Made by a program: the position numbers and the translations under genes
Source of the DNA: Bilabrum cf. latius
Lineage: Eukaryota
Assembly: GCA_965178125.1 (NCBI GenBank)
Contig: OZ237742.1
Location: forward strand, 806,001 to 870,000
Direction: 5' to 3'
Length of the DNA stretch: 64,000 bases
Shown: positions 14,596-60,783 of the stretch, piece by piece
Position numbering within the stretch: position 1 is the first letter of the stretch
Layout of the letters: each line of letters opens with the position of its first letter
The notes under the pieces: generated by a model
Databases searched by the model: none
Seen by the model: only the letters and a program-made list of their open reading frames with translations
Told to the model about the DNA's origin: nothing

Positions 14596-15843
14596 TTAGA
14601 AGCAACAGTTGCACAAACAACCAAATGCGACCCCTTTCATGCGCAAAGCAGGGCGCCCGGCTATGCTAGACCCGGCTCGAAGCGCCGCAGGCTCTGCTTC
14701 AATGTCCCCAGGCTTCTCAGGGGTAACTCCTGTCGTGGTCAATACCGCTCTGATGAATACTCTTTGCATTCGAAGGCCAGACTTTCTATTCCTTGACTCG
14801 ACGCATGAGTATCGGCAGCACCAGCTGCAGTGTCGATCCGACTGATCGCCTAATCTCATGCCAACCAACCCAGCTTCGGGTGTAGGCGGGGCCACACTCA
14901 TCTTCGCACTGCAGTACTTGTCACCCGGAAGCACGACTTTCAGGCTCGGGGTTCTGCTCGATGCTTGCGGGTGGCCATCAAGTGCTGCCTCAGACACCGT
15001 TTGCAGGTGCATACGTGTTTCGTCCCTAGGCTCCCACTCACCACATATGCACCTTTCTGCTTGCCTGCACAGCGCGACAAACTCTTCGAGGCTGAAAAAA
15101 TGCGTGAGGGTGCCATCAGGGCGCGCGAATGATCGCACCAGCTACCCCTCCCACACGCCGACGTCCCTGCCACCGAGCTAGTCGCGTGGCTCTGACGCGC
15201 TGGTGGCTTCTTTGGTCGCAATCGGGCCTCCTCCCAGCCCCTTGGCATTGCCACGGATCATCGCATGATCCATGATGCCGTAATCACGGAAGCAGAGGAT
15301 ACCCCCTGGTGCCAGCATCGCGAGCATAGCACCCAGCGCGCAAGGATGCTGCGCATCGGGGATCGCTGATAGAACAAAGGTGCACAAGACGGCATCAAAC
15401 TGCCCGCGCAGTGTGTGTGGAAGTGCTTGTGGACCTTTCGCGATATCAAGTATGCGAAAGCTTGCCGCACCCGGCGCACAAGCAGCTTCACATTGCTTTA
15501 TTGCAGTTTCTGCAATGTCAGAAGCCATACTTGCCACTCCCTTCAGTTTAGATAGCAAGCCCATGCTGGCCCCATTGCCAGCACCTAGCTCGTGAATTCG
15601 AAAATCACGGATTTGCCGAGATGAAAAATGAGCCAGCAGCCTTGAACGGAGCTCTGGAAAGCCAGCTAGCAAGCTATTGCGAGGCTGGAAAAACAAGCCT
15701 TTGCCATGCTGCCGATAAAACTTGTCCCACGCATCTGAACGGGCCACAGGAAACACTTCTGAGCATTTAGTTTCAGCTTCAAGGGGTGCCGTCGTCTGTT
15801 TCGGTGGAAACTCGAAATCTGCTTCGTAGTATCTTGAACTCTG
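14596..15843 (-). CDS. SAM-dependent methyltransferase, METTL2/METTL6 (tRNA m3C)-like; 5' end uncertain
   Basis: WDKFY...FFQPR..L...FPEL, ELGAGNG, FVLSAIP, GGILCFRDYG..D.AM.R and RPDGTLTHFFS. TAGs at 15178 and 15142 lie inside the domain; ends TAA 14596-14598. Confidence 0.8.
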
Positions 15844-16080
15844 AGTACTGGCAAACAGGCGGCTCTACTCCATATGCGCGCATCGAAACCGCAATAAATG
15901 GTCCTATTTGCAATTGCAATGCTAGCTTAATTCATTCATTACCATCAATGCATGATTTCGACCGCAATCACAACTTTGCGGTTACGGTGCTGATGAATCT
16001 AGTGGTGATGTAGAGAAGCAATCCAACGATCCGGATCCATCGACTTGGTGGCGCACTGAGTGGCGCACCAGCCTTCGAGA

Positions 16081-19000
16081 TTATGCGGGGCCAATGGCAC
16101 CCATCTACTCGGCTGCTATGACGCCGGGCATGGACTGGATGAACTGGACTGCCCGAGGAATGGCTTGTCGGGCCCTTGCGAGCTCCACAGCCCGCCGGCG
16201 AGCGGTTGACCGGTGCGGCTTCCACCCAGGCCGGGGCCGACTTGCCTCCGATAGTTGTGGCGTTGGCAAGCGCCCAAGGTGGAGTGAGTGCCTGGGCTTC
16301 TCCGTGTTTGCGGAGCTCGGTCCCTCGGCATACGGGACCCCTGCATGCTACTGGTGACCATAGGGTTGTGAGCCGAGCCCTCCACCCCCTCCCACTCCCA
16401 TCATGTTTCCCTTGCTATCAAGTTTGGCCGCAATCGCTGGAATGGGGCCTCGGGTCGAGTAAAGAATAGAGCGGGGCCTCGCCTAGCCTCGCAGCATGTC
16501 CTTGTAGATCTAGGCTCCCGCACTCGTCATATTAGGAAGCACAAGCGTTCGTTCCTGCTTCCTGTGCTTGACAATAGCCTCGCAGTCGCTCTTGCGCTTC
16601 CTTGCTGCTTCCAGCCCGCGGCGATACCTCACCTTGAGGTCCTCGACGCCCCAGTGAGCCATGCCGCCGCGGATGAGCTGCTGGTCCGCCCGACGAGCCG
16701 CCGCTTTCTCCTTTGACAGCGTCTGAGTTGCTTCATCCATCCGTGTTCCGTGTCTCCCCTGCAGCTGGTGCGACCGCAGCATGGCTGCCCTGCCCTTTGA
16801 TGCCAAGTAGGAGCCGCTCGCGTGCATGCCACCTACGGGCAATCCCAGCGAGTCGTAAACAAGCGCAGTCAGGCCGGTGTGGATCGCTCGTCTAGGACTG
16901 TGCTTTGACGCGCTGTGCGCGCCTGACTCACGACGGCTTGATCTGCTGGGCAACCACCTGGTCCTGTGCCTGTCGCCATGGAAAAGTCCAGGCATCAAGA
17001 GCGGTGAGCCCAGAGCATGGACGGCATCGAGCGCATTGGCAGCATCGAGCGCAGAATCGGTCTCCCAGCCTGAATCATCCTATTGATCGGTATCCGAGAT
17101 GGGGGACAGGCCGCTCCCAGCCTTGTCCATTGCATTAACTCGTTGTGGTTGCTGCTCCTTCGGTTGGCGACTCTGCGACGGCAGCCGAATGTCTCTCTGC
17201 GACATGGCGTGCTCTGTGGTACCGAGCAAGAGGCCGTGCCTCGAATGCCGTATGCTCGATGTGATCCCGTAGTTGCTCCCTGCCTGCATCGCATTGGCTT
17301 GTTGAGGCGCAAGGCACTCCTGCTCGCTCATGTGTCCGGGTTTGTGATGCACGCTTGGTGCTACTGGAGCTGTAAGCAACCCGTGGGAGCCTCCCGCGAT
17401 GCCACTCGCGGAGCCGTTGTCTTTTCGGTTCAGACCAATGCGCGCCTCTGGCTATGATCGTCCTTCATTGGTAATACCATGCAGCTCATCGCGTGCGCTA
17501 TCCCTGCCCTAGCTGTTACCTTCGCTTCCAGAGTCGCTGGCGCCGATGTCAATGTCTGGCAGAGCATCGCCAGACCCGGGGATCGGAAGCAGCGAAGGGG
17601 AGGAAGCCATCCGTTTCCGCACGAAGGGGACACGCGCACCACCGGAGCGCGATATTTCAGGACTGCCGCTCTCTGTGTCAGAGAACATTGAGCCGACCGT
17701 AGATGATCTGCTCCTGCTGCTTCGCATTGGCGAGACCGGCCTCATCTGCCGAACTGCGTTCAGTGCTGCAAGCGCGATGGGATTACTGACAGCACTGAGC
17801 CTTCGCACGTTCTTGCTCAAGTGCTTTGCATTGAGTGCCTTTGTCTTTCGAACAGACCCTGCATCGCTTCCGTTGTTGCCGTCAAAGTCGAGTGACGGAA
17901 GGCTGGCAATAGATCTACTTGGCAGGCTTCCTACGGATCCGAGCCTACGCCTGCCAACGTGCACGTGTACGAGCTGCTGGGGAGGAGAATCGTGGCTTGT
18001 GTCGCCCACGGCCTAGATTCCTAGGGGGTCGGACCGGTGGAGTAGGCCGTGGGGCTGTCGACCCAGCACGAATCCGCTGTGTCTGCGAGTACGTGGATTC
18101 GATCGCAGCTGACGTGCAGCAACAGCAGTAGCATCAGGAGGTGCAGGTGCATGATTGGCTCCACGGGGCCTTTCCGCCCGTGCACCATCGATGCTACGAG
18201 GAGAATCGTGGCTTGTGTCGCCCACGGCCTAGATTCCTAAGGGGTCGGACCGGTGAAGTAGGCCGTGGGGCTGTCGACCCAGCACGAATCCGCTGTGTCT
18301 GCGGGTACGTGGATTCGATGGCAGCTGGCGTGCAGCAACAGCAGCAGGTGCAGGTGCATGATTGGCTCCACAGGGCCCTTCCACCCATGCACCATCGCTG
18401 CTACTGCTTGAGCTTGCTGAACTGGACCTGTACGTTGGCAGAGGTTGATTTTGTCTTCCTGGAACACGAATCTTAGACGGCGGGGATATGCGAAGAACGC
18501 CGGGCGATCCCACAGGTGACGCGTCGTTCTAATGCGTCAAACCGCTAGTACCCTCCTCGATGCCACAGGCGGTGGCAAATGCTGCTGGCTATTGTACCTC
18601 TGCTGCTGTTTGATCTGTCGCCCCATCCATGCGGTCTTGCCTCCCTTCTCCATTCGATTTCGTCGTTGCCGCGCTACTGCTCGAATCGACGCTGGACCTG
18701 TTGCTCTCTGCGGTCCCAGCAGCTTTACGTCCCTCTGTTTTGCTTGCAGGTGCGTCCCGTACCGAGCTAGAACCACCAACCGCGCAATGCACGTCTCCGA
18801 TTTGAGGTCGTCGGGCTGGCTTGAATCCCGGGGGTGCTTCAATCGTGCGCCTGCGCGGCTCCGTTGACCTCTTCCTAGCTACTGACTCGCTAGATGCCTG
18901 AGGGTCAAAGCCAGTGAACGCATCGATAGCATCATCACCAGCCAAGGGCTCGCAGTCCAGCAGTCTGCTTGCTTTCAGGGTTCCCTGGTCGTCAGCAATC

Positions 19001-21219
19001 ACGCCAGGGCCGTCCAAGGAACCATCACGAGTTACTCCAGAGCGACCGACGATCCCGTGGCGCTTTGATGCGCTCTATGTTCTCGTCTTTGATTTCCCCC
19101 AATGTCGAATCGGCGCAGTACTGCGCCATTCTTGCAGCTGCCTCAGCTGAGGGATGCTGCTGTCCTGCTCAGAAGCCCCGCTGGCACCGCCACCGCCAAG
19201 GCCAGAGGACGACACTGATGCGGAGCCCCCTGGCCTAGAAGGCATGGCCATTTCCTCCCAAAGAGAAATGCCGCCGTTTCCGCCTCCTGCATGCATGGGT
19301 TGGATCTTTCTCCTAGCGGGGCCTGGAGGCCGGCTGATCGCACGTTGCTAGGAAGCCTTGTGACCAGCCCCGAGCCAGGACCCGAGCCCAGTGCCTATTC
19401 CGATGGCATCGTCCAAGCCATGGTGATCCATGCCCGCCTCATCGTCACTACTATGGTTTCCGTCTGAACCTGGATGCTCGCTCCCTTCCATTGCCGCCTT
19501 TCGCTGCTCTTCCAGGTGCTCGACGAGCCGAGTTGTCACGCCGCACGCCTCGATCGCGTGCTTGAACACGTCCTCCTTGACCCTCGCGGCCACCATGGCG
19601 AACTGAGAGGCTCCCATCTCCCACACGATGCAAGTCGTCCTGGCTCTGTACTCGAGTAGAGATGGCCTCTCGAGGAGAAATGGCAGAGCCCCGATCGTGT
19701 GGCCGCTGCTGACGTCGCACAGCTTGCGCAGTTTTCGGTGGCGGGATGCAGAGGGCGGCCGACGCGCTCCGGTGCGGCGATGTGCCTTTCCGAGGGCGTG
19801 ATGCGCGTGATTCGGTGCCCAGATCTCTGCTTCGCCAGTTTGAAGCAGCACGATGCCGCTCGCCGGGGCTCCCTCTGCCAGGATTGTCGCGCCAGGGCTG
19901 ACTTTAACAGGCCGCATGCCCAGCATGAACTCCGTGGCCTGGGTCTTTGTAAGTCTTCTCAGGAATGGAAGCCTCAAGAACATGTTTAATCGATCGCTGG
20001 AGATGTCAAGGAGGTCCTGTAGAGGCCTGTGAATGTTGAAATCGTCCCTCGATATGGACAGGAGCAGGCAGGCGCTGAGGGCTCGAACGGTAGCCGTGCG
20101 GTGCTGCGACCTCGAGCGGAGCGCCAACTCCCCGAATGTCCGCCCTTCGTTGATTCTTCCCACCAGTCGATGACCAGGAAGGGCATGAAGCGCGTCTTGT
20201 CCCAGGATGCTGAAGGGCGACGACGGGCTGTCTACAGCTATGCCTCCCGCCCCGGTTCCATGATTCGATTCGGGCTTAGCAGACGCAGCAGAGACCTGTC
20301 TTTGCGACGGGACGGGCGTGCTTTCGCCATCGGTGTGATACATTGGACTGCTGCTCGCCTAGTCTGGGCCTCCGGCGTGCTCTACTAGTTGGCTCATCCC
20401 TTGGATTTCAGTGAGGGTTAGCTGGTGCGGCAGTTGCTGCGATTTGCCGCGGCTTAGCCGACTGCTGCGGCGCGGTGAACTATCTTTAGCTTGTTGGGCC
20501 GCATCTGAGACGGACTCGGTGGAAGGTTTAGGAGACTGTCCGGGCTGACGAGAGACGCTGCCTCGTCGGGAGCGCTACGCGCTGGCAGGTCTTGAAGCGG
20601 CTGGACCACCTGCTGCCGCCGAGAGGACCATTGAACCGCGACGCTAAGACAAACGGCGTCCGCCGGTTGCCCCTAGATGCATGCCCGATAATTTGCGTAC
20701 ACTCGAGCCTACCGCTGCCGCAAGAGCGGAATAGCACAGTTCTGCTTGTTTCAGCATATCCTACGCGGGGGCTCCAAGCGGCCTGCTCTCCGGAGAAACG
20801 TGCTGCCAACGATTGCTGGAATGGTTTGGCCCACTGCTGTCTTTGTGTCGCTCAAAGACGCCGAGCTACCCGGCCAAGACGCAAAAAAGCTTATCACCCA
20901 AGTCGCCTTGTTGGAACAGGCACGTCCCTCTGTCCAGTTTCACGAGCCCCAAAACTCTTGGTAAAATTTCCAAACAAGCCTTGTTTACCCGTTTCAAGAT
21001 TGGTATTTTGTCAAAGTTTTGCAGAAGCATCGTCTGAATGGCGTTCACATCTGATCTGCATCTCTGCTTCGCATCGATTGCCAGGGCTCCTAGAATACCT
21101 GGAGAATCGAATGCTTGCTCAAAGTTTGACTCAGTTTCCTATAATGAAGTCGGTAGCGTACTCATCTCATTCGCAGGAGCTTTGCGGGAGTTCCGTTGGC
21201 CAAGGTGAATCAAGGGCAT
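16081..21219 (-). CDS. Large cyclic-nucleotide-binding-domain protein (~1,700 aa); start uncertain
   Basis: LFQQGDLGDKLFCVLAG(TAG)LGV, GRTFGELAL...RTATVRA and a second CNB domain (ILAEGAPASGIVLLQTGEAEI). All minus-strand pieces from 21048 to 16510 share one frame and are joined by TAG; ends TAA 16081-16083. Confidence 0.7.
17984..18400. repeat. ~216-bp (72-codon) in-frame tandem duplication inside the cNMP gene
   Basis: ggagaatcgtggcttgtgtcgcccacggcctagattcct... starts at ~17984 and again at ~18200. The peptide GDTSHDSP is repeated. Confidence 0.9.
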
Positions 21220-21558
21220 GCTCCGCTCCGATCACTCGTCACGGCCGAGCGTGGCAAATCTGGATGCTTGCGGTCAAACGACCCGAAGTCTGCCTTGCCT
21301 GCAAGGCCACACTCATGCGGAAGTGAACTTGACCGAGACAATCATACTATGCAGCTATACGCAGGGCATGATGTAGCCCCGCCCCACTGGCAGTGCTGAC
21401 CCCCCCCCGACAGCTAGCGATAGCAGATGCTATCTAGCTTACCACCACATCGGGAGCCATAGGCTACCTTGTGATTCCATATAAACCACCAATAGGATAA
21501 CCCAACCATCCGAAAGGGGGGGGGGGCTGGCTGCACCTATCACCGACTCCCTGTAAGA

Positions 21559-23738: not shown

Positions 23739-26089
23739 ATGGAATGTGGTTTCTACGGCAACTGGAGAAGCTATGGTGCTACAGTTCTTGTACGTCTGAC
23801 ATAGGATTTCGTTTGCGCCCACAGCCTGAAATCTGAATATCTGCACTATAACGCTGCGTTGAGTCGTAGAAATGTCCTTCTCACCGTGGTTTAGAGTTAG
23901 AAATCCTGCTTGTATAGCCCGTACTGGTTGACCCGCTATTGCTGCATGCTGTCCAATTCTTGAACGTTGTTCCTTTTTGTACCGTCTCGCAGACTGTACT
24001 TTCGGGCGTAGGATTCTGGTCGGTGAGCTCATCTGCTGGTATTCGCGTGAACCTTAGCAGCACTACGAACACTTGGAGTACTGGACACCGCTGCGCCATA
24101 CTTTGCCGAATCGGAAACGCAGGATGCCTATGATCTGTTTGCAATCGACATTGTCCGAGAAGTGAGATCTCTAGCGCCTGCAACTTGATGAAGCTCTGGT
24201 AACTTTCTCAAACCACGCTTGGTCGCTACACCTTCGCCAATATCCCTTGTCTGTGCGCAGTCCATGGCCGACGACCCGTATCTTGGGGAGAACGACAGCA
24301 CAGCAACTGATTTGGCTCACAAAAAAACGCTTGTGAGCGTGGCTGCGCTGGTTGGGGCCGTGCTAGGACAGCTCATCTTCGGCATACTTGCTGACCGGAT
24401 CGGTCGCCGGGTGATTTTCGTCGTCACGATTTCTTGCGTGATCGTCGGTGCCGGCCTGTCTGCCTCCGTGGTACCTAGCGAGCACTTTAGTCCTTTCTAT
24501 CAGCTCGCACTGTGGCAGTTCATCATGGGATTCGGGTGAGGCGAGGGACTCAACAGCCGAGTGCGCTTGTTCTCATGCTCGGCACTCGGATTTTGCGCCC
24601 CGTTGGTGTGCTTCCATCCATCCATCGATCCGCTCGATGCATGAGTATTAAGACTATGTAACCCTCACACCAACCCCACCTGCTTGTTCCCTGGTCTCGT
24701 TGCCCCCCCCGCAGGATCGGTGGTGAGTACCCCCTAAGCGCCACCATTTCCTCGGAGGCTGCCTCTACCAAGGACCGTGGAAAGAACGTGTCGCTAGTGT
24801 TTGCCATGCAGGGCTGGGGCAACCTGACCGCGGGAATGCTGGGATGGGCGCTGCTGAAGGGGCTCGAGCACCGCGACGTGGACCGCTACACGATCGTGTG
24901 GCGCTGCATGCTGGCGTTCGGCGGTGTCCCCGGACTGCTCACGGTGTACTTCAGGTACCAGATGGAGGAATCGAAGATATTCTCGAAGAGCCAGGGGCAC
25001 CCCGCAGAAGATGGAGGGGCGGGGCAGGACGCGGGCAAGGGGCAGGCGCTGCTCGCGGACCAGTCACTCGGTGGAGCCACGGCGATCAACGCGGGCTCGG
25101 GCGCGGTCGTGGCCCCAGCCGCCCCGGCGCAGGAGCTGGGGTGTGCGCGCACCATGTCGACGCTGCGAACCTTCGGCTGGATCCTCGCCGGCACCGCAGG
25201 CTCCTGGTTCCTCTTTGACGTGACGTTCTACGGCAACGCCGTCTTTGCCACCAAGATCATCTCCACGCTGCAGCCTATCGACGACGACGACACGCAGTAC
25301 GACAAGCTGCAGAAGCACGCGCTCAGCAAGTTCATCATCACCGCCATCGCGCTCCCAGGGTACTACCTCGGCGTGTTTACCATCGACGTGATCGGGAGGA
25401 GGTAGCTGCAAATGTTTGGCTTCGGCATGACGGGCGTGGTGTTCGCGCTGCTGGCTCTCTTCGCCGAGGACATGTCGCACAAGAAGCTCGGAGCTCTCGT
25501 GGTGGCCCTGTACGGCCTTAGCTTCCTGTTCGCCAACTGGGGCCCCAACACGACGACTTACGTGATCCCCTCGGAGAGTTTCCCCACGTGGGCGCGAGCC
25601 ACGTGCCACGGAATCAGCGCTGCATCTGGCAAACTGGGGGCGGTGGTGGGCAGCTTCGGGCTGGGCGAGATCATCGAGGCCGGGGGCAAGGGATGGACCC
25701 CTCTGGAGACAGTGCTGTGGATCTGCACGGGGGTGTCGGTGGCTGGGGTGCTGTGGACCTTCTTTTTCACCCGCGACATGTCGGCAGTCAGCCTGGAAGA
25801 CCTGGATGCGGGAAGGATCAACGGGCCCACCCCATCGGGGAGGGTCGTGCCCGGCACGCCAAAGCCTGGCAGCCTCTTCGCCCATGCGGATGTGGAAGCG
25901 GACAAGTACGCCCCCGTCTCTGATTTCCCAGAGAACAAGTCAGCCACCCCGGAGCTGAGGGATTCTCAGCTGTATGCCGAGGAGGCCAGCGGCAGGACCG
26001 GGCGGGCTGGAGCGGGTGGGCGCATCGAGATCCAGGGGGCGGGCCAGTATGGCAACGCGGGTGACTAGAGCAACAGCACCTACATGTGA
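23739..26089 (+). CDS. MFS inorganic phosphate:H+ symporter (PHO84/PHT1-like), 4 introns
   Basis: SGVGFWS|DAYDLF split over small exons, GQLIFGILADRIGRR, G|IGGEYPLSA, FAMQGWG, SWFLFDVTFYG and ANWGPNTTTYVIPSESFPT..RATCHGISAASGKLGA. TAG at 25403 (IGRR*LQ) and 26066; ends TGA 26087-26089. Confidence 0.92.
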
Positions 26090-30065: not shown

Positions 30066-33000
30066 TTATGACACGTCCACCACACGGCTGTCTGAGTTCT
30101 CTGGATCGCCATGCTCGCGGTATGCCTCAACGTGGCCTGGCAGCACCTGCCCTGCCTGACTCCTGTCCTGTGATGCAATATCGAGCTCTTCTCCAGCGCT
30201 CAAACCGTGCTGCTATGTCTGCGAGCTTGCAGCAGAGTCAAGTGCCATCCTCTTAGCAGAACCACCTGCGGGTAGCAAAGCCTCACTAGCGGCGCTCACA
30301 TCTTGCTCTCTTCCAGGTGACGCAGAGTTCGCCAGCAGCTGCGTGCCAGTATCGCCGGCGGAATCAGTTGACTTGATCATTGGCTGGTCCTCTGTGTGGT
30401 CTCCGGACGCAGCGGCTAAGTCATTCATGATATCGTCCATTTCTTTGTTGCTCTGAGCGATTGCGAGGTTCTGTACCACGTGCTTGAACCTAGGATTATC
30501 TGCCAGCCTGTAAGTGTGGAGGCCTTGCTCCCGAAGCACCTCCCACGTCAGCATGGGCTGCCCAGCCTCGTGGTACCTGCCGTCGGGACCCGTGCCGTGA
30601 ATGGGCCACACTCGAAGCTCCGCAAGCTGGCTCGATGGAAAGTACCTGCTGTAGCCCAGCTAGACGGATTCATTCTCCAAGCTGCGCTCGCGAACCGCGG
30701 CTGCTTGTTCCTCTTTGGCAAGAAGCTTGCTGTAAGGCTCGGACAGGGCAGGGCTATAGCTGTCGATCTCGTCGACCTAAGGGGCTGGCTTGCAGCACAT
30801 GAAGCAGGTCAGCGTGTACACCATCCGGCTTATCACGGCGTACACAGCCTTTCCGAGCGTCCTTTTGAGCACGGTGAGAATCAACAACAAGATCAGAACC
30901 GTCAGTAGAGGCAGTGTAGTTATCTTGGTAGCTCGCTCCAGGAGTCCGAACGGGTCCGAATACGACGTGAGTGCCGAGCCGATGGTATCGCCAGCTGCGG
31001 CTGTGCCGTTCGTGGCTCCGCCTCCCACCGCCTCAGATGCAGACACTACATCCTCGATGGAATCTTCAATGCTGGGGGTGCCTACCCCCCCTGGCTCGCC
31101 CAGCATGTACACCGACACACCGGTGCGGACCAACACCGACACGAACACGGCGGTAGCTGTCAGGTCGGCAAGGCTTGCATCATAGCGTGGAGGTTCAGCG
31201 TACACCCTGAAGATAAGGAACTTGTCCACAATCAGGCTAGCCAGAACACCCAACAGCGCAATAAGATGCATGACTGGTAGTCCCGGAGAGTACACTATCG
31301 CGATGCACACTGTCGTCAGCACAGCAGCGACCCTTGTGGGCAGGTTGAAGGCCGGGGGCTCAAGCAGCTCGTTCAGCTGCTCCTGTGTGACCGCCTAGGG
31401 CATGCAACACCGCTGCATGCACGGAGTTACTATGTAGTACGTTGCCATGGGTGCGACATGTGGCACAAACACGTTCGCCAGCACAGAGATGCAGACTCCC
31501 ACGCCCACTGCCGCGTACCACCCGCTGTCGAAGCTCTTGTGCCCAGTGATGAAGACTCCTCCAAGGCTTTCCAAGTTCAATCCCTCTGCAAACTTGAAGT
31601 GTGCATTGACTAGTAGGACGATTAGGCCAGTGTTAATGACTTGTGCGACGAGCAGGCGAGACGCCAGGAAGGTCACCTTGGCGCTCGCAGAGGCGAACCG
31701 CTGGTACTTCGCGAGCACTTCGAGCAGCGAGATGAGCAGCACATTCACCAGAACCACGATCAAAGAGTTGCCGATGGAAATCGACTGTGCGGTCAAAAAC
31801 GCCGTGGCGATGTCAAGGCAGACACCCCCGTGCTGATCGCTTGCGGCGTCCACAGCTGCCCGGAACCCATTCTCCATGACTTGGTCTGAGAAATCCGTGA
31901 GGCAGAAGCAGCCGAGCACCGTGCTTGCAGCAAATGTCTGTGAGCGAGGGCTAGAGGGATCAACAAGCCTATTCTGCTCGTCGACGGGTGACTTGCACTC
32001 GAATGTGTCGCTCGGTCCAAAGCAAGTACCTGCGCACCGGCTATCGTGTCCGGCCAGTTGCGCAAAGTGTGCCCTGGCATTCACTTGCTCCGCCGCATGC
32101 ACATCAACATGGGACAGTTCGATTGACAGTATCTTGTCGCTAGTGTCATTGCGACTGCACTGCGATGCATCGGCAGCGGCTGCGACAAAGGACCAGTCAC
32201 CCCCCGGCGGCTACCCGCCGTACAGCAGTCCGGGCACGACAGTCTGGCACAGGGCCAGATCGGGTGCTTTTTCGAGAGAATCCCTGCTGACGACCGTCCC
32301 CACGATGACGATGACCATGGTCAGCAGCAGCACGAGGCACAGAACTGCGTTGGCGACGAGGCTCCTACAGCACCTCTCTTTGTCCGTAATCTCCACGTTT
32401 TCCCAGGCAATCGTGGAAGGGTCGTCCGCCTGTGATACGTGAATGCGGTGCTTACCCCTGAACATCAGCGCGGGTGGGGTTCCGCAGCAGAAGTACTGGT
32501 CTTGATCGCGATAGTCCGCGAGGATTCTCCGCTGGCTCATCTCGTTCTCAAAGGTCACGAATGCGCCCACGCACTCGGACGAGGCCTCGCTCAGAATGGC
32601 CTGCTGCTTGCCGTGCAGCCGCTCGGCCAAGCGGAGGATGTTGCGGCGCTCATACAACTCTAAATGCTCATCTTGTCGATGCTTCGCGATCCTGGCTCGC
32701 TCGACGGCAAGCCTGACATCTTGGTTCAAGGTCTTGGTGGCAAGCCCTGCCATGAGCATCTTGCCGTCTGGGTGGGCCACATTCACATCCGCCACCCATT
32801 TCCCGACGAACACCTGCTCCCCTGCATACGATGTGTTTTGAACAGGGTTTGCAGTCTCTCGGGGTGGCAGCTCGGCTACCAGGCGAAACTCGCTGTCCCC
32901 GTGCCTCTGCAAAAACCTGTGCAGTGTCTCGTCCGTCTCAGGCTGCAGCTGCGGCCTCGCTTGGGACTGTGCCTTCCTGCCGCACCAGATGCAGCATGCT

Positions 33001-37029: not shown

Positions 37030-40000
37030 ATGGGGCAATCATCTTCCACCAGTGGAGGGGAATTATCAAAAGAAAGTGCTTCGTCTGCTGGTATTCCTGT
37101 TCGGTTCGGCACGGAAACGAAGGAAAGGCCACTAGGAGTGTTTTTTGATCGCGGCGGGCCCAACCGCAGGAACCTTGTCCTTGCCCACAGTCGCACCGTA
37201 GATGTGTTCAATCCTGATAACGGTAAGCTGGAGCTGCTTGCATTTTTCGCTTTCTTGGAGGTGCTTGCTTGAGAAGTGATTCTTGCTTCTTCGCCATCCA
37301 CCAGCCTGCAGGAGACAAGCGAATATCGATTCGGATCTCATCCCCAGCATCCTGCGCATCTTACGCTGCGTCAACAACTCTTGGTCGACTAGTTCTGATT
37401 GGATGCCTGGACGGCAGCGTGAATTTACTTGATATCGACACGGGCAAGTGAGACGTCGTCAGTCAATTGCGGTTGGTGCCTCAATCTACTGTTCAGCCGG
37501 ATGAGTGTGCTCCAAGTTGGGTAATTTGATAAAGCGTCATATTGGCTCAGCGCAGAACGGTGAAATCTGCAGTTCTCGACCCGCCTGCTGGCATGGGCAA
37601 GCGCCCGAATGACGATCTGATTCGCTTCGAAGAGATGCACGAATCTGTGCGCCGCACTCTAGAGGCGAACGCGCGAGCGGGATCTGCAGGAGGATCCCTT
37701 GTCGCTACAAGCACGTCTGGCGAGGCCATGCCGAAGCCGAGCAGGTTCGTCACGTTCATCGCGGATGCCGGTCTTCGCGAGCAGCTGCTCGTCGGGTACT
37801 CGGACGGCTCCGCGTTCGTGATGAAAATCATCGGAGGTGAGACTTGTATTGCATTGCACCGCTTGGCGTGCTTGCGCTAGACTATTCCGCAAACCCGCTA
37901 GAACGCCAGCATGCGTGCGAGGCAGCTCCACAGCGCAACGCCAGCACACATCGCCTCGGAGCCCCACCCAGCTCATGCCCCCAACCCCCCCCCCCCCCAC
38001 TCACACCAATTCGCCCGCACACATAACGCGCCCCGTGTACACCTCCTTCCACCACTCCTCCCGTAGCCGACCCTGGCACCGCCCTGCTGCCCCCCGACAT
38101 GGAAGACACCGAGGCTGACCCGACCTCTGCGACTGCCGCTAGGTCTGCAATCGCTGCCACTGCCACTTCTGGCTCTCCGGGCAGCAGGAGTGCGAACTAT
38201 CGGGACAACATGGGCCCCGTGGTGGGCATTCGCGTCTTTGGGGCAGAGGAGGCACCCATCGTGGCGGTGGCTCACTGCAACGGAATCATCCATTGCTACG
38301 ACCTGAAAACATGTGAGAGAGATGATTAGGACGTGCAGCTCCAATGAGTTCCAGTCTGCAGTATCATCCGAGCAGCCAGCCCTGCAAGTTTTGCTAGCTT
38401 TGCGCGAGGCAGCGCACCCCTCATCTGCACTGCTACGTGGCATCCTTTGCGTACCTCTCTATCTTAACGCAGGCCAGTGGCGCGGGAATTACAAGACGCA
38501 ATCCGGGGATCGAATCTCGGCACTGCTAGGCCTGCCGCAGTACCAGTGCATCCTGGCCACGCTGCATAGGAGGAACGCGTTCCTGCTCTGGGACCTAGTC
38601 GGTCGCAAATCAGCGGAGCTTGACGTCACAGCGGAACTGGAGTCGATCGGGAAGCGGAACTCGGTCGTGACGTCAGCCTGCTTTGATGACGACAGGGGCA
38701 TGCTCACTGTGGGCACGCACGACGGGGGGCTGTTTCTCCGGGCCGTGCGGCGCATCGGGGGGACGAACGACCTCGCGCTCCGACTGCTTCGCAGCTACAA
38801 GCCAACGCACAGCCTCGGCAAGATCCTGCCGGGCACTAGCCCGCACACGCTGCCAACTGCTGTGACTTCCATGTACTTCGACAGCAGAAGCGATTCGCTG
38901 TTCACCACAGATGGATCGGGGATCGCCCGACTTGTTCCCAAGGCCACTGGCATTGCCTCAACTCGGGCGCGGGCTGCCACAGGCGACGGGCAGGTGATCG
39001 CCACAAGTGCAAGCACGTCTGGCGGCGAGGACGCCAGCCAGGGAGGAGCAGCCGGGGACGATGAAGAGTTCGGCTCCGGCGGATTGGCTGCAGCAGTGGC
39101 AGCTGCATAGGCAGACGACGAGGACTAGGGTGGCGCCGGCGCGGTGCAGATCAGGATTGGAGGAGCTGCTGCTGCGGGTGCTGCTGATGATGCCAGTAGC
39201 TCTGCCGAGGAGGAGGCTGCTGCCAAGAAGGCTGCCGAGGAGGAGGCTGCTGCCAAGAAGGCCGCCGAGGAGGAGGCTGCTGCCAAGAAGGCTGCCGAGG
39301 AGGAGGCTGCTGCCAAGAAGGCCGCCGAGGAGGAGGCTGCTGCCAAGAAGGCTGCCGAGGAGGAGGCTGCTGCCAAGAAGGCCGCCGAGGAGGAGGCTGC
39401 TGCCAAGAAGGCCGCCGAGGAGGAGGCTGCTGCCAAGAAGGCTGCCGAGGAGGAGGCTGCTGCCAAGAAGGCTGCCGAGGAGGAGGCTGCTGCCAAGAAG
39501 GCTGCCGAGGAGGAGGCTGCTGCCAAGAAGGCCGCCGAGGAGGAGGCTGCTGCCAAGAAGGCTGCCGAGGAGGAGGCTGCTGCCAAGAAGGCTGCCGAGG
39601 AGGAGGCTGCTGCCAAGAAGGCTGCCGAGGAGGAGGCTGCTGCCAAGAAGGCCGCCGAGGAGGAGGCTGCTGCCAAGAAGGCCGCCGAGGAGGAGGCTGC
39701 TGCCAAGAAGGCCGCCGAGGAGGAGGCTGCTGCCAAGAAGGCTGCCGAGGAGGAGGCTGCTGCCAAGAAGGCTGCCGAGGAGGAGGCTGCTGCCAAGAAG
39801 GCCGCCGAGGAGGAGGCTGCTGCCAAGAAGGCTGCCGAGGAGGAGGCTGCTGCCAAGAAGGCTGCCGAGGAGGAGGCTGCTGCCAAGAAGGCCGCCGAGG
39901 AGGAGGCTGCTGCCAAGAAGGCCGCCGAGGAGGAGGCTGCTGCCAAGAAGGCTGCCGAGGAGGAGGCTGCTGCCAAGAAGGCTGCCGAGGAGGAGGCTGC

Positions 40001-40187
40001 TGCCAAGAAGGCTGCCGAGGAAGGGCAGGATGATGAGGATGAAGAAGAGGATGGTGCGGCAGCTGGCGATGACGAAGACGGCGATAAAGCAGACGAAGGA
40101 GCGAAGGCTGATGACGGTGCAGCTGCAGATGGTACCAAATCAAAATCAACGGGCTCCAAGAAGAAGAGGAGGCGCCGTCGGAAATAA
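37030..40187 (+). CDS. WD40-like beta-propeller protein with a C-terminal (AAEEEAAAKK)27 helix and a basic tail; several introns
   Basis: Possible N-myristoylation start MGQSSS, LIGCLDGSVNLLD, LLVGYSDGS and VTSACFDD...LTVGTHDGGLFL. TAGs at 39108 and 39126; ends KKKRRRRRK-TAA 40185-40187. Confidence 0.7.
39201..40020 (+). repeat. 30-bp coding tandem repeat, 27 copies (GCY GCC GAG GAG GAG GCT GCT GCC AAG AAG)
   Basis: Directly visible. Apart from the first copy (TCT), units differ only at one synonymous GCT/GCC site. Confidence 0.97.
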
Positions 40188-47294: not shown

Positions 47295-47895
47295 ATGGCA
47301 TCCGAAGGCGCTGCTAGTGGATCTGGAGCGGCTGATGGTAAGGCCGCGGGGCCTCCAGCTGCCGATGCTGCCGCCCCGGCAGATGACATCGTGAAGTTTG
47401 ATTCGTTTCAAGCTGACCTGGAGGGAAAGGTCACGGAAGTGAGTGCTGCTCTTATGCCGTACAAACGCGCTGCAATGTTTTCAAATAGACTTAAACTGTG
47501 TTTGTGGCCCATGCCTGCAGCATGCTGACGTTCTGCCCCGAGTTTGGCTCGCCGATCTTTGGATCGTCCCGTTGCGCACTGCGCGTGGCATCTTTCCAAG
47601 CTCTTCGCACACGCTTTTGCAGATTGTGAAGGAGGTTCTTGGAGAGAACGAGTACAATGCTAACATGGTGGCTGAGTGGAGCGGGAAAATCTCGGAGCGA
47701 TCGCTGGCTGCAGCGAGGGAGTGCACGGACTAGATGAAATTTGTCGTTAGCTGCCTGGTCCTCCAGCTGTCTGGCTCAGGAATGCACTCTTGCTCGGCTT
47801 GCTTTTGGGACAAGACCACAGACGGATGTGCAAGCGTAAAGGTAGATACAGGCAAGTGCTTCGCCGTGGTAAATGTCTTCGGCATGGGTGTGTAA
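47295..47895 (+). CDS. Dynein light chain, Tctex-1 family; intron 47440-47622
   Basis: IVKEVLGENEYN...V.EWS..I, D(TAG)MKFVVSC.V.Q..GSGMH..S.C.WD..TDG and FAVVNVFG. Ends TAA 47893-47895. Confidence 0.9.
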
Positions 47896-51967: not shown

Positions 51968-54172
51968 ATGCGAGAATCAGTTTCAAATAAAAATCCTTTG
52001 ACTGACAGCACTCTGGATAAGCCATGCTGCTTTGGTTTGTACACGGAACGCGACTGCGTAGAGCGCGATTGGACCTGGGTTTTCGTTGACCTGGCGACTG
52101 TTCTGCTTGGCGGAGTCGTGGCTGTTGGGAGCTTCGGCACCTGGCTACAGGATCCGGACAGGAGCACAGGAGGAGTTGAAACTTGGAGGATCCCAGCACT
52201 GGTAGCGATTACAATCGTTGCCGCGCCAGTGTGTCGCCTGGTCCAAGCTGCCGTATTTCGTTGCTTGCAGTAGTGCAACTGTTCCCAGATCTGTCGAGAC
52301 ATCAACTTCATGCTTGGATCTTTTGAAGGCATCCCAGCCATGCTTTGCCTAACGGCTATTGCCGGATGGATTGCCGCTGGACCAGTCCTCGACCTGCCAT
52401 CGGGTGGACTTTCGGGAGAGCAGCAGCAGACGCAGGGTCAGATCAGTCGCGCGTTCGGATGCATCCTGACCGTGTCGCTATTATTGGGGGGTAGAATTGC
52501 CATTGTGAGGTACTTTTTGTGGGGCGTGCTGAAACGGGCAGCGTAGGAGCAGGCACATCAGCTCGATCGGCTGCAGGCAGTTGCACTGCTGCTCACCGCC
52601 TCCCTCCGACCGGATTGGCAGTGGCCAACCGTCCCGTGGAGTAGCGGAAGCGCCGACTCAAGCAGTCGTCAGAGCGGAAACGAAGCCCCCGATTCCAACG
52701 ATGGCCCACCGGGTGCTCGAGTCACGACCAACGTGCTCCTGGCGCACGACACCACCGCAGCTTCTGGCTCTGGCTCGCATTTCGCCGGCGGTGTGCCCGT
52801 CCAGCCGCGCTCGGGAACTGCCGGCTCCGCCCTCCCAGAAGATCCCGAGCACGCGCAGGCTCGCCTCCGCCGCATCCACCTCAAGGTGCTTGACGGGCGG
52901 GGGAGGGAGCACGCTATTCGGAGGGAGGACCTCGCCCGAGCAGTTGCTCGAGGAGCATTCCGGGCGCTGGCAAGGGGAAAACTAGCTTCCACTGGGGCTT
53001 CCGGGTCGGGAGGCAGCAGCGGTAAAGAGGACAGGGCGGTCCGTGTGGAGACTGCTTCCGTGGCGCGCGATGGCCCAATCGCGGGGAGCGCGGCGGCGTC
53101 CGTATCCGCTGGGGAGGTGCCGGGCATCGCGCGGGATGCTTCGTCAGGCGCCGGGGTCGGGCTGCTCGCCCGGGGCATGTCATCGATCGTGGGGTCCGGC
53201 TGGAGCACAAGCCACCGGATCAGCGACAGCGGGGAGGAAGGTGACGAGGAGCTCGAGCTGGTGGAGCACGATTTCAGGCTGCTGCTGCAGGACCCTGACC
53301 TCACCGACGATGTGTTCCCCTACTTTGACGTGTCCGAGAACGGGAGTGTCAGCATTGGGGAGTTTGAGGCGGGCTTCGCCAAGATATTCAGGACGTTCCA
53401 GGCTGCCAAGTCTTCCGTGACGGGAGGCGGCGCCGTGTCGAGCGCGATGGACACCGTGGCCGACGCGGCCTTCTACGTGCTTGCCGTGGTGATCATCCTC
53501 ACCTACGCTCACGTGCCCGTCAACAGCATTTTCGTGCCCATCGCCTCGATCATCCTGGCCTCTTCCTTTGCGCTGGGACCCGTCATTTCGGACACTGTGG
53601 CGTCCTTCGTGTTCGTGGTCATGGTGCGCGCATACGATGTGGGCGACAGGATCGTGGCAGAGGGGGTGAGAGACGAGCAGGTGCTCGTGGTGGAGGCAGT
53701 GGACATCCTCACCACCACCTTTACCATGCCTGCGACCGGTCGCAGGGTCACGGTGCCCAACCACAAGCTGGCGGGGACGTCCATCGAGAACCTCAAGAGA
53801 TCCCCGAGGGTCATCCTCACCAGCGCTGTGCAGGTCGCCCACGATACGACGGCCGCTCAGATCGACGCCATCAGGGCAGACGTCGAGTCCCTCGTCTCCA
53901 ACCCAGCGCGGGCCAAGGAGTGGAAGCCCGGCGTGAAGCTAACCGTTGAGAGCGTGGAGGGCAAGGGGGACGGCTGCTCTCAGCTCAAGCTGAGGCTGCA
54001 GGCCAGGCCCAGGAGGGGGTGGCAGGAGCTGCACAAGGTGAGGAGGGCACAGTCGGAGCTCCTGCTTCGGTTCGTGGACAGCATGCGCGCCCGCGGGGTG
54101 CATTTTCTCACAGATGAGATGGGCGAGGCGGGCGCGGGCAGGATGCGGGGCAGGTCAGGGACGGCAAGGTAA
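51968..54172 (+). CDS. Small-conductance mechanosensitive channel (MscS family) with an EF-hand-like motif
   Basis: FDVSENGSVSIGEF, SFALG...D.VAS.VFV...RAYDVGDRI and VPN..L....IEN..RS. TAGs at 52271 and 52544; ends TAA. Confidence 0.88.
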
Positions 54173-54408
54173 GTCGCACGGTTGGACGGGACCTGATGTG
54201 GTGCTTGAGTTGCGCAAGCCGGGGCAAGCGTAGGCTCGGCGCATAGGCAATGTATGTGGCCCCGACCTGCAGAGCGCCTTCGCACAAGAAGTATGATTGG
54301 TTTCCCTGTCCAAAACAGAGTACAAACGCATGTACTGCAAAAATAACACCAACCGACCGTCCTGCAAAGAAAGAGCCTATTCGGAGCCCCCCCAATTGCT
54401 CGCGCGCA

Positions 54409-55263
54409 TCATCGGGCGTTCGCTGCGCCTGCCGCCGCCTGCCGCGCCAAATCGGGATTGTCCCTGGCTGTCTGCATGGCGGCCTGTCCCGCCCTCTGCG
54501 CCACCTGGGGGTTCCTCTGCAGGTATCCAGCGATCTCGCTCTCCGCAGTGGTCTTCTTCTCGTCAGGGCTGCCGTAAAACTGCCCACCCGGCTGGTAGGC
54601 TGGGTGCACGCAGAATACGTACATGTTCAGGAAGGCGTTGACCATGGTGATTGCAGCCACAATGTAGCCTAGCCAGTAGCCCAGCGACAGGCACACGGTG
54701 GCTGTGAAGAAAATGAAGATCGACCGGCCAGTCACGGTGAACATGAATCCAAAACCGGCCCTGATCCTTGGCTGGATATTGCTAATGTTAAGCTCCACAC
54801 ATGTGATCATTAAGCCAAAAAATCTGCAGTGAGGATCCGAGCATACGAGGGCGAGACGCTTTGCAAAAGTCCTGGGAGCGGGGATGCGCAGTAGCACGAC
54901 GCAGGATTCCTTCTTACACTGTGTACGCCGACACAACAATCTCTGTGAATCCAACTTTCAATGTACCGACAAAAAAGAGGATCACAGCGGCTGTAATCAT
55001 CAGTAGCCCATTTAGAATATTTGTCATGCGAAGGGTGCGCTGCGCCTGGTTGTCTGTCCAAGCCTTTACATTCCTGCATAGACAAACGATGAATTTGTAT
55101 TATCAAGTAACGTCTAACCTAGAGGCAGCACCGCACGATCTGTGCTCTGCAGGTCTGCCAGATGATCTCACATCCAGCTCGAGGATTCTCCACCGTTCTC
55201 TCCGCCTTCGCCACCCCCAGCAGCGGGCGCAGGCTCCGCAAATGGATTCTCCTATGCTGACAT
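54409..55263 (-). CDS. COPI-associated / TVP15-like Golgi membrane protein, 2 introns
   Basis: LRMTNILNG, Y.V|FFGLMI.CVEL, FGFMFT..GRSIFIFF and HP motifs. TAG is the 4th codon (55252); ends TGA. Confidence 0.8.
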
Positions 55264-55425
55264 GGCTAGTGGGCAGGCGAAATTCTGTCGCCTTGTGCGG
55301 GTATACTGCTTCTGGCATGTTTCGTCGGAAAAATCAGTTTTCTTTTTTGTAGTGTGTCATTCGTCACTTGAAATTCAAGTATCCAACAATTGTACATTTC
55401 TCGTCTCTCTGAAGACATATCCACA

Positions 55426-57282
<1,857 letters not shown>

Positions 57283-57476
57283 AGACTGCGCGTTTCGAGG
57301 TCGGGGAGTGGGAGGGAGGAGGGGTGCGCTGCGCTCTGTTCGTATGTGGATGATGATACGTCTTGTTTCGTTTAGTCCCGCGCCAACAAATTGAGAGATT
57401 GCCGGCTGCACCGGTGTGAAGGTTCGCCATGCAAGGTGTGGCGACAACACGAACCACCGACACGTCACCCGATAGC

Positions 57477-60400
57477 ATGGCTCGATCCAATGACCAATAT
57501 AGCTACAAGGTGCCTGTAGTACTTGTAGCAGGTTTTCTTGCACCTTCCAAGTGAGTGTCGTCCAGAGGGGCGCGTCTTCATGTTACATATTGCCCAAAGT
57601 CCGTGTCTTCCAAAGTCGTTTGACACCTGGGCCGCAGGGACTGTGAGACGTATTGGGGATATGCCACGAGGCAACGGGGTATGCGAACAATTAGTGCTCG
57701 CCTATCACCAGTAGCTAGCTCGTGGGAGCGCGCATGCTAGCTTTTCTATTAGCTCAAAGGGGGCCGGATAGATTACGGGGCTCGCCATTCCAGGGCGTTC
57801 AATGTTGAGAGGTTTGGCCACGATTTTGGAGAAGGACTGTACCCGGAATGGAACGAATCTAACCCCATTCACTTGGTTGGACATTCTTTCGGCGGACAGA
57901 GCGCACGTGTCCTCCAACAGATGCTAGAAGACGGAGAGTTTGCAGGTGAGATTCTGTCGTCGTGCGGGAATACGCCCCGCGAGGCTGGCTGCACATGCAC
58001 CTCTAGTCATGCACGTTATTAATTGTTGCAGGTTATGACACATCGTCTCGGTGGGTGCTGAGCATCGCATGCATCAGTTCGCCTTTGAATGGCAGCGTAA
58101 GGTGTTGGATATCCGAGCGCCACACTTGCTTCTGAGCATTTACTGAGCACGTATCTGCAATTATTGCCATGTCTATTTGCTAGAGCAGCTTGCTGTCTAT
58201 CCATTGGGGGCAAAGTCGGATGTGCTGGGTCAGTGGGTCGGCAAAATCCTTGCTAATACGACCAGCCGCGCTGCGATGCGAGCCGCCCAGCAGGAAAGGA
58301 CCAGTGGTGTTTACCCGCGAGAAATTCCCTCCGAAGATCCATCGCGATCAAATGCACCCCTGTCTCACAGCAACGAGCCGTCGAAAGATGCCGGACTCCC
58401 GGCATCGCAATCTGCCCCTTGCCTCCCTCAAGTCGCTGCAAGCGCACCATGCGGCCGAGAGGCGAGCAGCGCCGCCAGCGGCAGCGCCTGTGCCAGCGCC
58501 ACTGACGAGGTACCACTCGGAGAGAAACCAAGAAGTACGGACGAGCGCGCACCGAGGAGCAGCGGCAGTAGGGCGATCGCTTCGACGGTTGCTCTGGTTC
58601 CGCCTTCGCAGCATGGCTCGCAGGCTGGGCAGTCTGCCCGGACGTCGCTTGCGCAGTGGCAGCCCCACCTTCCCGTCAGGTGGTTTTCTGCAGGATTTTC
58701 CCTGGGAGTCCTGATCCAAGGTCTGGAGTTCCTCGACAGCCCCGCCCTGCGCGGCACAGGGCTCGATTTCGTGATGCAGCACCACAAGCTCTCCCGCAGG
58801 CATGGGTTGACGCTGGGCTGCCTCCGCCTCTTGCGCGCACTTAACCCATGCTCTCGCGGAAGCAGGCTCTTTCAGAACACCAACACGGCTCCTTTTGACC
58901 TATCAGTGCACGGATCATTCCTGTGGAATGCTAGGATCAGGCACTACCACCACACGTACTACTTCTCATTCGTGGGCGACGGAGCCATGGGACCCGAGGA
59001 GGACCTAGCGAGCGACCAGAACACCGGCAGTTCGGTCGCGTGGTCGCACGACAGGCGCTACCCCCAGGGACTCCTGAAGGCTGGCCAGGAATGTCTCCAA
59101 GGACCTGAAGGGGCTGCGCGAAGGACAGCGGCAATGGGTGCCTGCGCACCATCGTGCAGTGCAGCTGCCAGGCATCTTCCCCCCCGTGCCGCTGCCGCTG
59201 CTGCGTGCACCTTCCCAGCTGCGCCGGGTCTTCTCTCGCCTGGATGCAGCGATGCTGGCCGCGCTGCATCCAGTCAGGACTAGCCAGATGATGACATTGA
59301 AACAGGGGTGGCTCCGCATTGCTGCGCCGCTGGACCGCAGACGGACGTTGCATCGTCCTCAGGGCAGAGCACGCTCAGCGATGCAGGCGAATCAGGCCTG
59401 CACTCCTCTCGCTCTACCAGCCCAAGCGCAGCAAGCCACGCCTCATTATCATGGAGATCAGAGTCAGGCGCTGCTTCCAGATCGTCTAGTTAGGATGGAT
59501 TGGAAGGAGGCGCATCGGACACTGCTGAGATGACGACGGCATCCATCAGAGCCTGGCCGAGCCGCCCCAGGAGAGCCAAGAGGAAGAGCAGCAGGAGAGC
59601 CCAGCCAGCGAGGCAGCCTAACTGCGCAATGACCTCGATTCAGCACGCCTTTGCGTGCTTCTACGTGGTACTGGGCTGGCTCGGCGCGATGCTTACGACT
59701 GTGGGAGTGGCGCGGGACCTCGTGTCATGGTCGGGCAAGGTGTTCTGGGCCGCCACACGCTCCTTTGGGTCCTCTGCTGGTTGCGGCTGCGGCTGCGGCT
59801 GCGGCTGCTGGGCTTAGAGGTGCGTAGATGCGGACCGTGGCAACACCCAAAACTCGTCTATCCACTCGGGCGCGATTGACAGGACCAGCGGTACTATGGC
59901 AGCAGGCGGTCAGGAGGAGGGCAGCAACCGCGTCATGGAGGTCCAGGACGCATCTGCATCTGACACTCTCGATTCTACCTCGATTGATCCTGCAGCAGGC
60001 ACTGATGGGACTGGCCCCGAACATGTTGATGAGGTGGCCTGGTGGCCGGTGGTGCCCAGCCGTCCAGATGCGTACGTGAACACGGGAGGCGAGATGCTGC
60101 GCTGCAAGTAGGGGAGAGTGCCGCACGCGACGTGGCTGGCGTGGGCCTCAGAGCAGCTGGCCCTCCCCGCGGTGAAAACTGTGCTGCTGCGGGGAATGTA
60201 CGAGGCTGTGCGGTTCTGGCCGTGGAGAGAAGAGGACTTCAGGATGATGTACCCTGGCTTTTAGGTCAAGAGCTGGCTGCGCGGCGGCCACGACGGGCTG
60301 TGCGGGGTCAAGACACAGGCCTTTCCCATTGTGTGCAGGGGTGACGGGACGGACGAAGTGATCGCACCTGCCGGTGCGATGCTGGGTCCTGCCGAGGCGG

Positions 60401-60783
60401 TGAAGAACGGGTCCACAGATTCCGATGCCTGTGGGGAGCAGCAAGCTGCGAGGAGAACGGCCTCGTCCGACCTCAGGAGGTGGGGCAGGGACGGTGACTC
60501 ATCAGGCCGCTCCACACAGGTGTGCCTGCCTGCCGTGCCCAAGCGCTGGATTCCTCCACATCGGTTTGGCCCCATTCCAGCGCATGCCAGCGACGTGCGG
60601 CCTGGCGTGTGGTATGTCCGGCGAGTGGCTGTGGACCACGTGAGCATCGTCCCGGCGTAGCACGACAGCATCGCGCAGCAGTCCCTGTTTAAGGAGCTAT
60701 TTGCGGGGCTCCGGCGAGCAGAGGAGAGGTGGAGAGCCATGAAGGAGGCGGAAGAGCACCTTCTGGAGATGGATGCGTTCTAA
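57477..60783 (+). CDS. Lipase, alpha/beta hydrolase related to bacterial family I.5/I.6 lipases, with long low-complexity insertions; 3 introns
   Basis: PVVLVAGFL, YWG, SSWERAC*LFY*LKGGRIDYG..H, GLYPEW...PIHLVGHSFGGQ, SSPLNGS, FDLS, HDGL...TQ and GVW...DH. TAGs at 57738, 57750, 59281, 59491, 59815, 60109, 60262 and 60658; ends TAA. Confidence 0.88.

Follow-up and report, generated by a model that had tools for sequence, protein, structure and literature searches.

Whether UAA and UAG are decoded differently in one nuclear genome is the question raised by a 64-kb stretch of DNA from Bilabrum cf. latius (GenBank contig OZ237742.1; G000:C8:806001-870000 in the numbering used here), which is called the window below and belongs to a eukaryotic parent assembly of 48.6 Mb in 111 contigs. 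The 23 gene models of the window ended in TGA (15) or TAA (8), and in an initial annotation it was proposed that UAA still terminates when UAG is read as glutamine. Independently built models returned identical counts and, being made by reading through TAG as well, shared the circularity of the first set. This circularity was removed by evidence from outside the window, because dynein ends are fixed by homologs, Ras-family ends carry prenylation motifs, and the termination factor gene eRF1 has an ortholog with TGA where the host has TAA. Together with the window models these confirm the proposal, and a nuclear code with UAG as glutamine and with UAA and UGA as stops is regarded as almost certain. 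On the basis of DNA and RNA sequences, TAG is shown to be a sense codon at glutamine positions, unedited, in genes ending with TGA or TAA. The explanation built on this code, in which one tRNA(CUA) would read UAG, is considered highly probable; descent of that tRNA from tRNA-Tyr and poor recognition of UAG by eRF1 are its less certain parts.

Stop codons were counted by hand in 241 genome-wide Pfam matches (AAA_6 28, Pkinase 148, Ras 65), which contained about 153 in-frame TAG, 3 TAA and 5 TGA; all eight TAA and TGA were located at match edges or directly behind a GT donor. Ten dynein heavy chains, taken from roughly 19 genomic loci and each forming a single frame of 4,300-5,070 codons (about 47,000 codons in sum), held 137 in-frame TAG, up to 26 per gene, and neither TAA nor TGA. 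Glutamine codons in these genes were CAG (1,820), CAA (215) and TAG, the last with a share of 6%, and about 16 TAA are predicted under a ciliate-type code when TAG is scaled by the CAA:CAG ratio. In the alignment to 150 homologs, 22 TAG fell in conserved columns (at least 60%), and the conserved residue was Q in 16, E in 4, L in 1, N in 1 and Tyr in none, when CAA corresponded to Q in 23/26 and CAG in 237/291 columns. The residue profile of TAG was thus like those of CAA and CAG and unlike those of GAG or TAT.

All ten dynein frames ended within 4 residues of the homolog C-termini, with TGA (8) or TAA (2). Among 30 loci of Ras-family small GTPases, 20 had a C-terminal motif of the types that we take to be prenylation signals, and the codon right after it was TGA (16) or TAA (4), never TAG; in the remaining ten the motif was absent or the locus was a 5′ exon. 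In total, the 30 independently anchored gene ends comprised 24 TGA, 6 TAA and no TAG. The lack of exonic in-frame TAA, noticed initially in the window, extended to the Pfam matches, the dyneins and the AT-rich inserts described below, where none was met at a conserved internal position; in dyneins and inserts the count was 0 in about 51,000 codons. Within 264 kb, the coding signal continued after 65% of TAG (n=17) and 62% of CAA (n=34) versus 6% of TGA (n=16).

A separate test was provided by two 10-kb AT-rich stretches of 32-45% GC (L267, G000:C3:1092001-1102000; L268, G000:C5:276001-286000), which encode an rve integrase, a C5 DNA methylase, an RNA ligase and a DUF5906 protein, in addition to helicase-like and ATPase-like genes; no capsid gene was seen in these 20 kb. 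Their 13 frames of 137-864 codons cover 13 of the 20 kb and ended in TGA (7) or TAA (6), and the 4,394 codons included 64 TAG and no TAA, with about 195 TAA expected under a ciliate-type code. The inserts are the strongest test against that code, because A-ending codons are favoured in them. In the insert integrase, TAG is opposite the conserved Q (PQ motif) of Ty3 and foamy-virus integrases, and the virus-like inserts, as judged by their reading frames, use the UAG = Gln code of the host. Several insert copies are suggested, since related tRNA-Met(CAT)-like genes were present at six loci. In one such insert tRNA cluster on G000:C3, there is a degenerate single-copy tRNA-like gene (L053:323-394) with C1-G72, a D stem that reads GTGT, and an irregular anticodon loop containing TCTA. 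On visual comparison it looks similar to the host suppressor tRNA described next, but its folding is poor.

One predicted tRNA gene with anticodon CUA was identified in the genome (G000:C23:907607-907679, minus strand), located in host-like DNA of 61% GC, with the second-best Rfam tRNA score of 48 genome matches, a full cloverleaf and a T-run downstream. The initial annotation had anticipated a tRNA-Gln(CUA) encoded outside the window and no UUA counterpart; the tRNA search of the window returned nothing, and tRNA(UUA) was not found by Rfam and pattern searches of the genome, in which tRNA recovery was incomplete. Scores were obtained for just 63 of the 780 Rfam tRNA candidates, tRNAs for His and Leu are absent from the set, and the patterns would pass over tRNAs with introns or of unusual shape, which speaks against taking the gene set as complete; a tRNA(UUA) or a further suppressor could be missed. 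The pattern searches recovered Gln(UUG) once and Gln(CUG) twice, and pattern matches with TTA or with a long-arm CTA were rejected as not being tRNAs. From ARAGORN, the default-threshold set was used, as a lowered threshold with introns gave mostly noise. The 5′ half of the suppressor had no matches in a scan of viral contigs.

The expected derivation of this gene as an anticodon mutant of tRNA-Gln was not borne out by its stems, the closest being those of tRNA-Tyr. In an arm-by-arm comparison of the 32 tRNA sequences that could be parsed, which excluded those of Phe and Cys, tRNA(CUA) had 10 of 12 stem pairs in common with tRNA-Tyr(GUA) (6/7 in the acceptor stem, 4/5 in the anticodon stem), 6 of 12 with Gln(CUG) (three in each stem), and 3 of 12 with Gln(UUG) (one and two, respectively). 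The highest sharing among 311 between-isotype pairs of host tRNAs was 8/12, and C1-G72 occurred in tRNA-Tyr and tRNA(CUA) only. The same code could also be read by a tRNA(CUA) that arose from a tRNA-Gln gene by anticodon change, as was predicted by Panek et al., with the Tyr-like stems due to chance or to a gene-conversion patch. This origin, for which there is precedent in Tetrahymena and Spironucleus (PMC5304391), is favoured by a D stem identical to that of Gln(UUG) (4/4, versus 1/4 with Tyr), a Gln-type D loop, the common G73, nearly equal whole-length identities (Gln(UUG) 49, Tyr 50) and a short-sequence tree placing tRNA(CUA) among Gln/Glu/Gly-type tRNAs. In view of the acceptor and anticodon stems it is regarded as possible but rather unlikely, and a gene that is derived from tRNA-Tyr, or is a Tyr/Gln chimera, and would be charged by glutaminyl-tRNA synthetase (GlnRS) is moderately favoured.

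The eukaryotic tRNA-Tyr determinants are C1-G72, A73, G34 and U35 (PMC9976931), of which tRNA(CUA) has kept C1-G72 and U35 and lost A73 (now G73) and G34 (now C34). From the bacterial tRNA-Gln identity set of the same source, G73, G2-C71, G10, U35 and A37 are present, and U1-A72, G3-C70, G36 and U38 are not; the set is bacterial, the eukaryotic Gln entry in the table being blank, and the tRNA-Gln of the host itself is also devoid of U1-A72 and G3-C70. In the mechanism which we propose, a copy of tRNA-Tyr(GUA) would have changed G34 to C, A73 to G and its D arm to the tRNA-Gln type, thereby escaping TyrRS and becoming charged by the single cytosolic GlnRS; we place somewhat more trust in this route than in its alternatives. 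The one tRNA with anticodon CUA would then read UAG as glutamine, and UAA would stay a stop, as pairing of C34 with its final A is not possible.

The single-copy, cytosolic GlnRS gene (L269, G000:C33) had no special change in the column which, from the position in the E. coli enzyme, we take to adjoin the anticodon G36 pocket, this residue being Gly as in 114/118 homologs. Lineage-specific changes are common to L269 and the protein P0392, e.g. one extra residue in the anticodon-binding barrel and, in the N-terminal domain, Phe in place of a conserved Asp. Among other host tRNAs, tRNA-Ile(GAU) and tRNA-Val(GAC) with G34 occurred beside Ala(AGC), Thr(AGU) and Arg(ACG) with A34 (L011, L057, L253), a mixed G34/A34 wobble strategy that is unusual for eukaryotes.

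The eRF1 gene (L001) was found once, on G000:C35 and thus outside the window as had been stated, in four exons with inferred GT-AG introns; a second family match was Pelota. The gene contains two TAG and ends with TAA at the acidic C-terminus of the family, and one TAG is at the Q44 column (Q in 89/94 homologs). Both TAG are in the N domain of eRF1 itself (exons 2 and 3), one of them at position 69, and make 2 of 16 Gln codons, near the genome share; feedback could result if UAG were leaky. In comparison to 95 homologs, with human numbering by offset, the motifs GTS, E55, NIKS, S70, Y125, C127 and F131 were intact, when G29A, N30D, I35V, S60V, L69Q, F117P, N129S and K130H were changed. Thus, inspection of the N-domain motifs, recommended at the outset, disclosed candidate changes only, and the loss of UAG recognition stays inferred: of the UAG-reading residues T32, E55, Y125, L69 and N129, the first three are intact, and L69Q and N129S are present.

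In yeast, eRF1 L69A raised UAG readthrough slightly more than that of other stops (PMC4381064), and N126S was enriched in an amber-suppression screen (PMC12440015). Less favourable to a role of the changed residues are N30A, which was without effect in yeast (PMC4381064), the presence of Q at position 69 in 6/95 homologs, a green alga included, and human eRF1 S60V, which keeps 94/92/72% activity (column order inferred; PMC3632111) and by which S60V is ruled out as a sufficient cause of UAG blindness. The changes L69Q, N129S, G29A/N30D and S60V are candidates only. It is plausible that eRF1 is blind to UAG, which it would read poorly by several small N-domain changes (L69Q, N129S, G29A/N30D) and not by loss of a core motif.

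With the core motifs of eRF1 intact, UAG may instead be ambiguous, i.e. the tRNA would compete with an eRF1 still terminating partly at UAG, or only near the poly(A) tail, and the low TAG share among dynein Gln codons would fit such a state. In 65 genes, including 35 whose ends were defined with TAG read as sense, TAG occurred 4, 10 and 14 times in the final 15, 30 and 50 codons versus 4.9, 12.2 and 19.2 expected, so a small deficit is seen at 50 codons and no clear loss near the stop. None of the 30 anchored ends was TAG. In two anchored genes TAG stands 12 codons ahead of a CAAX-type end in the Ras family and 20 codons ahead of a conserved end motif in a dynein, and single dyneins carry it up to 26 times. 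Position-dependent termination at TAG near gene ends, named initially as an observation that would overturn the proposal, was not detected, nor were for TAG the features of context-dependent codes of the Condylostoma and Blastocrithidia type (one codon used both inside genes and at their ends, with depletion towards the stops). Ambiguity is therefore improbable. Against the favoured explanation weigh the slight deficit of TAG in the last 50 codons, Glu in four of the 22 conserved dynein columns, and a coding-continuation test with one TAA case, too few to judge TAA.

The Tyr-like stems and C1-G72 of the tRNA would agree with UAG being Tyr, and the four dynein columns with Glu; since none of the 22 columns is Tyr and 16 are Gln, the profile fits CAA and CAG, and the Tyr determinants G34 and A73 are lost (PMC9976931), this assignment is very improbable. 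Equally remote, or slightly more so, is a standard code with U-to-C editing of UAG to CAG in mRNA, for which one C/U change would suffice, or with TAG as assembly errors. RNA evidence consisted of contigs from three sequencing runs, recognised as RNA by splicing, which give neither poly(A) sites nor expression levels. Such contigs covered 19 of 24 in-frame TAG listed for seven frames, 7 of the 19 in spliced contigs, without any other letters, although partial editing could be hidden as minor variants are dropped; two of the uncovered TAG are intronic, and a CUA tRNA gene exists. A ciliate-type code (UAA and UAG both Gln), with internal TAA rare merely from GC-rich coding DNA and the preference for G-ending codons, is considered negligible, as none of the TAA predicted in dyneins and inserts was seen at Gln or other conserved positions, TAA stands right behind prenylation motifs and family C-termini, and tRNA(UUA) was not found in the searches.

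In the window, the initial annotation had placed the TAA of RBBP4, Tctex, MscS and the lipase behind family C-terminal motifs. All four TAA are present; the Tctex and RBBP4 stops are anchored and firm, when the MscS stop is weak, being possibly a splice donor where no RNA joint is listed and RNA cover of the spot is not shown, and the last exon of the lipase-like gene had no match in the Pfam search. The MscS and lipase ends add little. Introns 2 and 3 of RBBP4 were confirmed in RNA.

Table 1. Stop-type codons of interest in the window (positions of the 64-kb stretch).
Feature	Position	Strand	Basis
TAA stop of Tctex-1 dynein light chain	47893..47895	+	PF03645 model ends at residue 86/90, 4 codons upstream; covered unchanged by spliced RNA contig
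In-frame TAG within Tctex-1 domain	47731..47733	+	Inside Pfam match; unedited in spliced RNA contig
TAA stop of RBBP4	57280..57282	+	Alignment to PDB RBBP4 chain reaches residue 418/425, five codons upstream; spliced model
In-frame TAG in internal RBBP4 exon	56487..56489	+	Flanking introns RNA-confirmed; no other letters in RNA contig
TAA ending MscS frame, or part of GTAAGT splice donor	54170..54172	+	Sequence context AAG followed by GTAAGT
TAA ending lipase-like frame, 6 TAG in last exon	60781..60783	+	6 TAG unedited in RNA contig
TAA ending methyltransferase frame	14596..14598	-	Pfam match and window model; end without homology anchor
TAA ending cNMP-binding protein frame; 19 TAG, of which the last precedes the stop by 8 codons	16081..16083	-	Pfam match and model; end without homology anchor
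TAA ending RSN1/OSCA-like channel frame	30066..30068	-	Pfam match and model; end without homology anchor
TAA ending repeat-rich protein frame, after basic tail	40185..40187	+	Pfam search and model; end without homology anchor
TAG 7 codons before TGA of sugar/phosphate transporter frame	26066..26068	+	Window model; indistinguishable from a stop in this single gene

Two repeats were observed in the window. Positions 60788-64000 contain near-duplicate gene segments with doubled DNA depth, in which the frames 61314-61940 and 63208-63837 are almost identical, and positions 39190-40030 are a long perfect tandem repeat coding for an AAKKAAEEEA-type unit.

The best named match of the host eRF1 was that of Cafeteria roenbergensis (69%), and quick eRF1 trees joined the host, Cafeteria and a sister clade (SH-aLRT 87; UFBoot 89 in a second tree). 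Placed by this one nuclear gene, the host appears to be a bicosoecid-like stramenopile flagellate near Cafeteria; a cox1 search did not find a close named relative. On the 38-kb mitochondrial contig, a tRNA with anticodon UCA was present, TGA was internal in 21 of 22 long frames, and TAA was at all 22 ends, indicating UGA = Trp as in Cafileria, for the mitochondrion of which the table-4 code is reported (PMC6723347). A second 18S rRNA gene of 1,802 bases (L266, G000:C95:6099-7900) differs from the tandem copies of 1,700 bases on C12 and looks to us dinoflagellate-like; its contig is probably a contaminant.

In related metagenome sequences, the code was judged from the eRF1 gene alone. In L097, at 92% identity, a TAG is aligned with a CAG of the host, and the stop is TGA where the host gene ends with TAA. 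The eRF1 of L139, which belongs to the sister clade, stops at TGA and contains two TAG, each of them aligned with a Q of the related L133; its N domain is strongly altered (NIKS to QIKS, S70A), when L133 has no TAG in 18 Gln codons and ends with TAA. N129S and a change at N30 are common to both clades and not to Cafeteria, and the union of the two clades had 44% support only. A second origin of the code in L139 is possible. On the joint reading, which we hold to be evenly balanced between true and false, this would be the first stramenopile nuclear code change, with UAG = Gln by a natural amber suppressor switched from Tyr to Gln; the code would be common to L097 and the more distant Cafeteria-related L139, by one origin prepared by the N129S/N30 changes of eRF1 or by two independent ones, and integrated virus-like elements would have adopted it.

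Annotation by the standard code truncates such proteins, and accordingly the public protein P0019 spans exactly between the two TAG of L139. Two further metagenome eRF1 contigs, L153 and L157, have both TAA and TAG inside the alignment and are probably from ciliate-code organisms. The public eRF1 P0008, on record as Symbiodinium sp. KB8, is placed by the trees with the Cafeteria-related clade, which suggests a flagellate contaminant in that record.

Few lineages are known to have nuclear codes in which UAA and UAG differ, and most of these are represented by transcriptomes or partial genomes. The contiguous 48.6-Mb genome offers a candidate tRNA, eRF1 and GlnRS together, making three questions testable: how a eukaryotic eRF1 can ignore UAG yet keep UAA and UGA, what a eukaryotic GlnRS recognises, and whether a stop codon can be captured via a switch of tRNA identity. 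Eukaryotic amber-suppression engineering seeks an eRF1 of the kind that the host would have, one that in nature fails to see UAG and no other stop (PMC12440015). Viruses of related flagellates may also be held off by the code, a barrier that at least one group has crossed, as the inserts show; the hosts of all isolated giant viruses are said to use the standard code (PMC13524828).

In the literature searched, which misses most subscription papers and bioRxiv supplements, no stramenopile or bicosoecid case of UAG = Gln was found. The host code equals that of the unrelated fornicate Iotanema spirale (nuclear UAG = Gln, UAA and UGA stop; PMC5304391), a code named 'code 15' in one listing (PMC9523058). 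The Iotanema tRNA is a prediction, from tRNA-Gln(CUG) by Panek et al., whereas the host has a candidate gene, and the Iotanema eRF1 carries T32G (PMC5304391), when the GTS of the host is intact. In the ciliates Hartmannula sinica, Trochilia petrani and Protocruzia tuzeti, UAG is Gln and UAA is retained as a stop (PMC11687900); no suppressor tRNA was detected by McGowan et al. in the first two, unlike in the host, and host genes stop more often at TGA than at TAA, unlike the Gln-type ciliates of that study. No tRNA for a Gln-type split code is reported in the literature compared (PMC5304391, PMC11687900).

With other amino acids, UAA and UAG are decoupled in the rhizarian exLh and three TARA phyllopharyngean genomes (UAG = Leu), in Scotinosphaera (UAG = Ser), and in Oligohymenophorea sp. 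PL0344 (UAA = Lys, UAG = Glu) (PMC11687900, PMC10553269). The eRF1 of exLh is also changed at L69, as in the host, and the suppressor tRNAs of these codes, where described, resemble tRNAs of the inserted amino acid, whereas the host stems resemble another isotype.

In Escherichia coli, discriminator mutants of the su3 tRNA-Tyr insert Gln. Amber suppressors of tRNA-Trp, tRNA-fMet, tRNA-Ser and tRNA-Asn do so as well (PMC9976931), and like the proposed host tRNA, such suppressors combine a non-Gln body, a CUA anticodon (U35) and G73 with charging by GlnRS; they are bacterial laboratory mutants, whereas the host case would be natural, fixed and eukaryotic. Endogenous Polinton-like viruses of Streblomastix strix use the altered code of their host, in which UAA and UAG are both Gln, compared to UAG only in the present inserts (PMC10120064). 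With Iotanema and three ciliates already known to use the code, the new elements here are the lineage, the candidate tRNA with Tyr-like stems, and the code-matched inserts.

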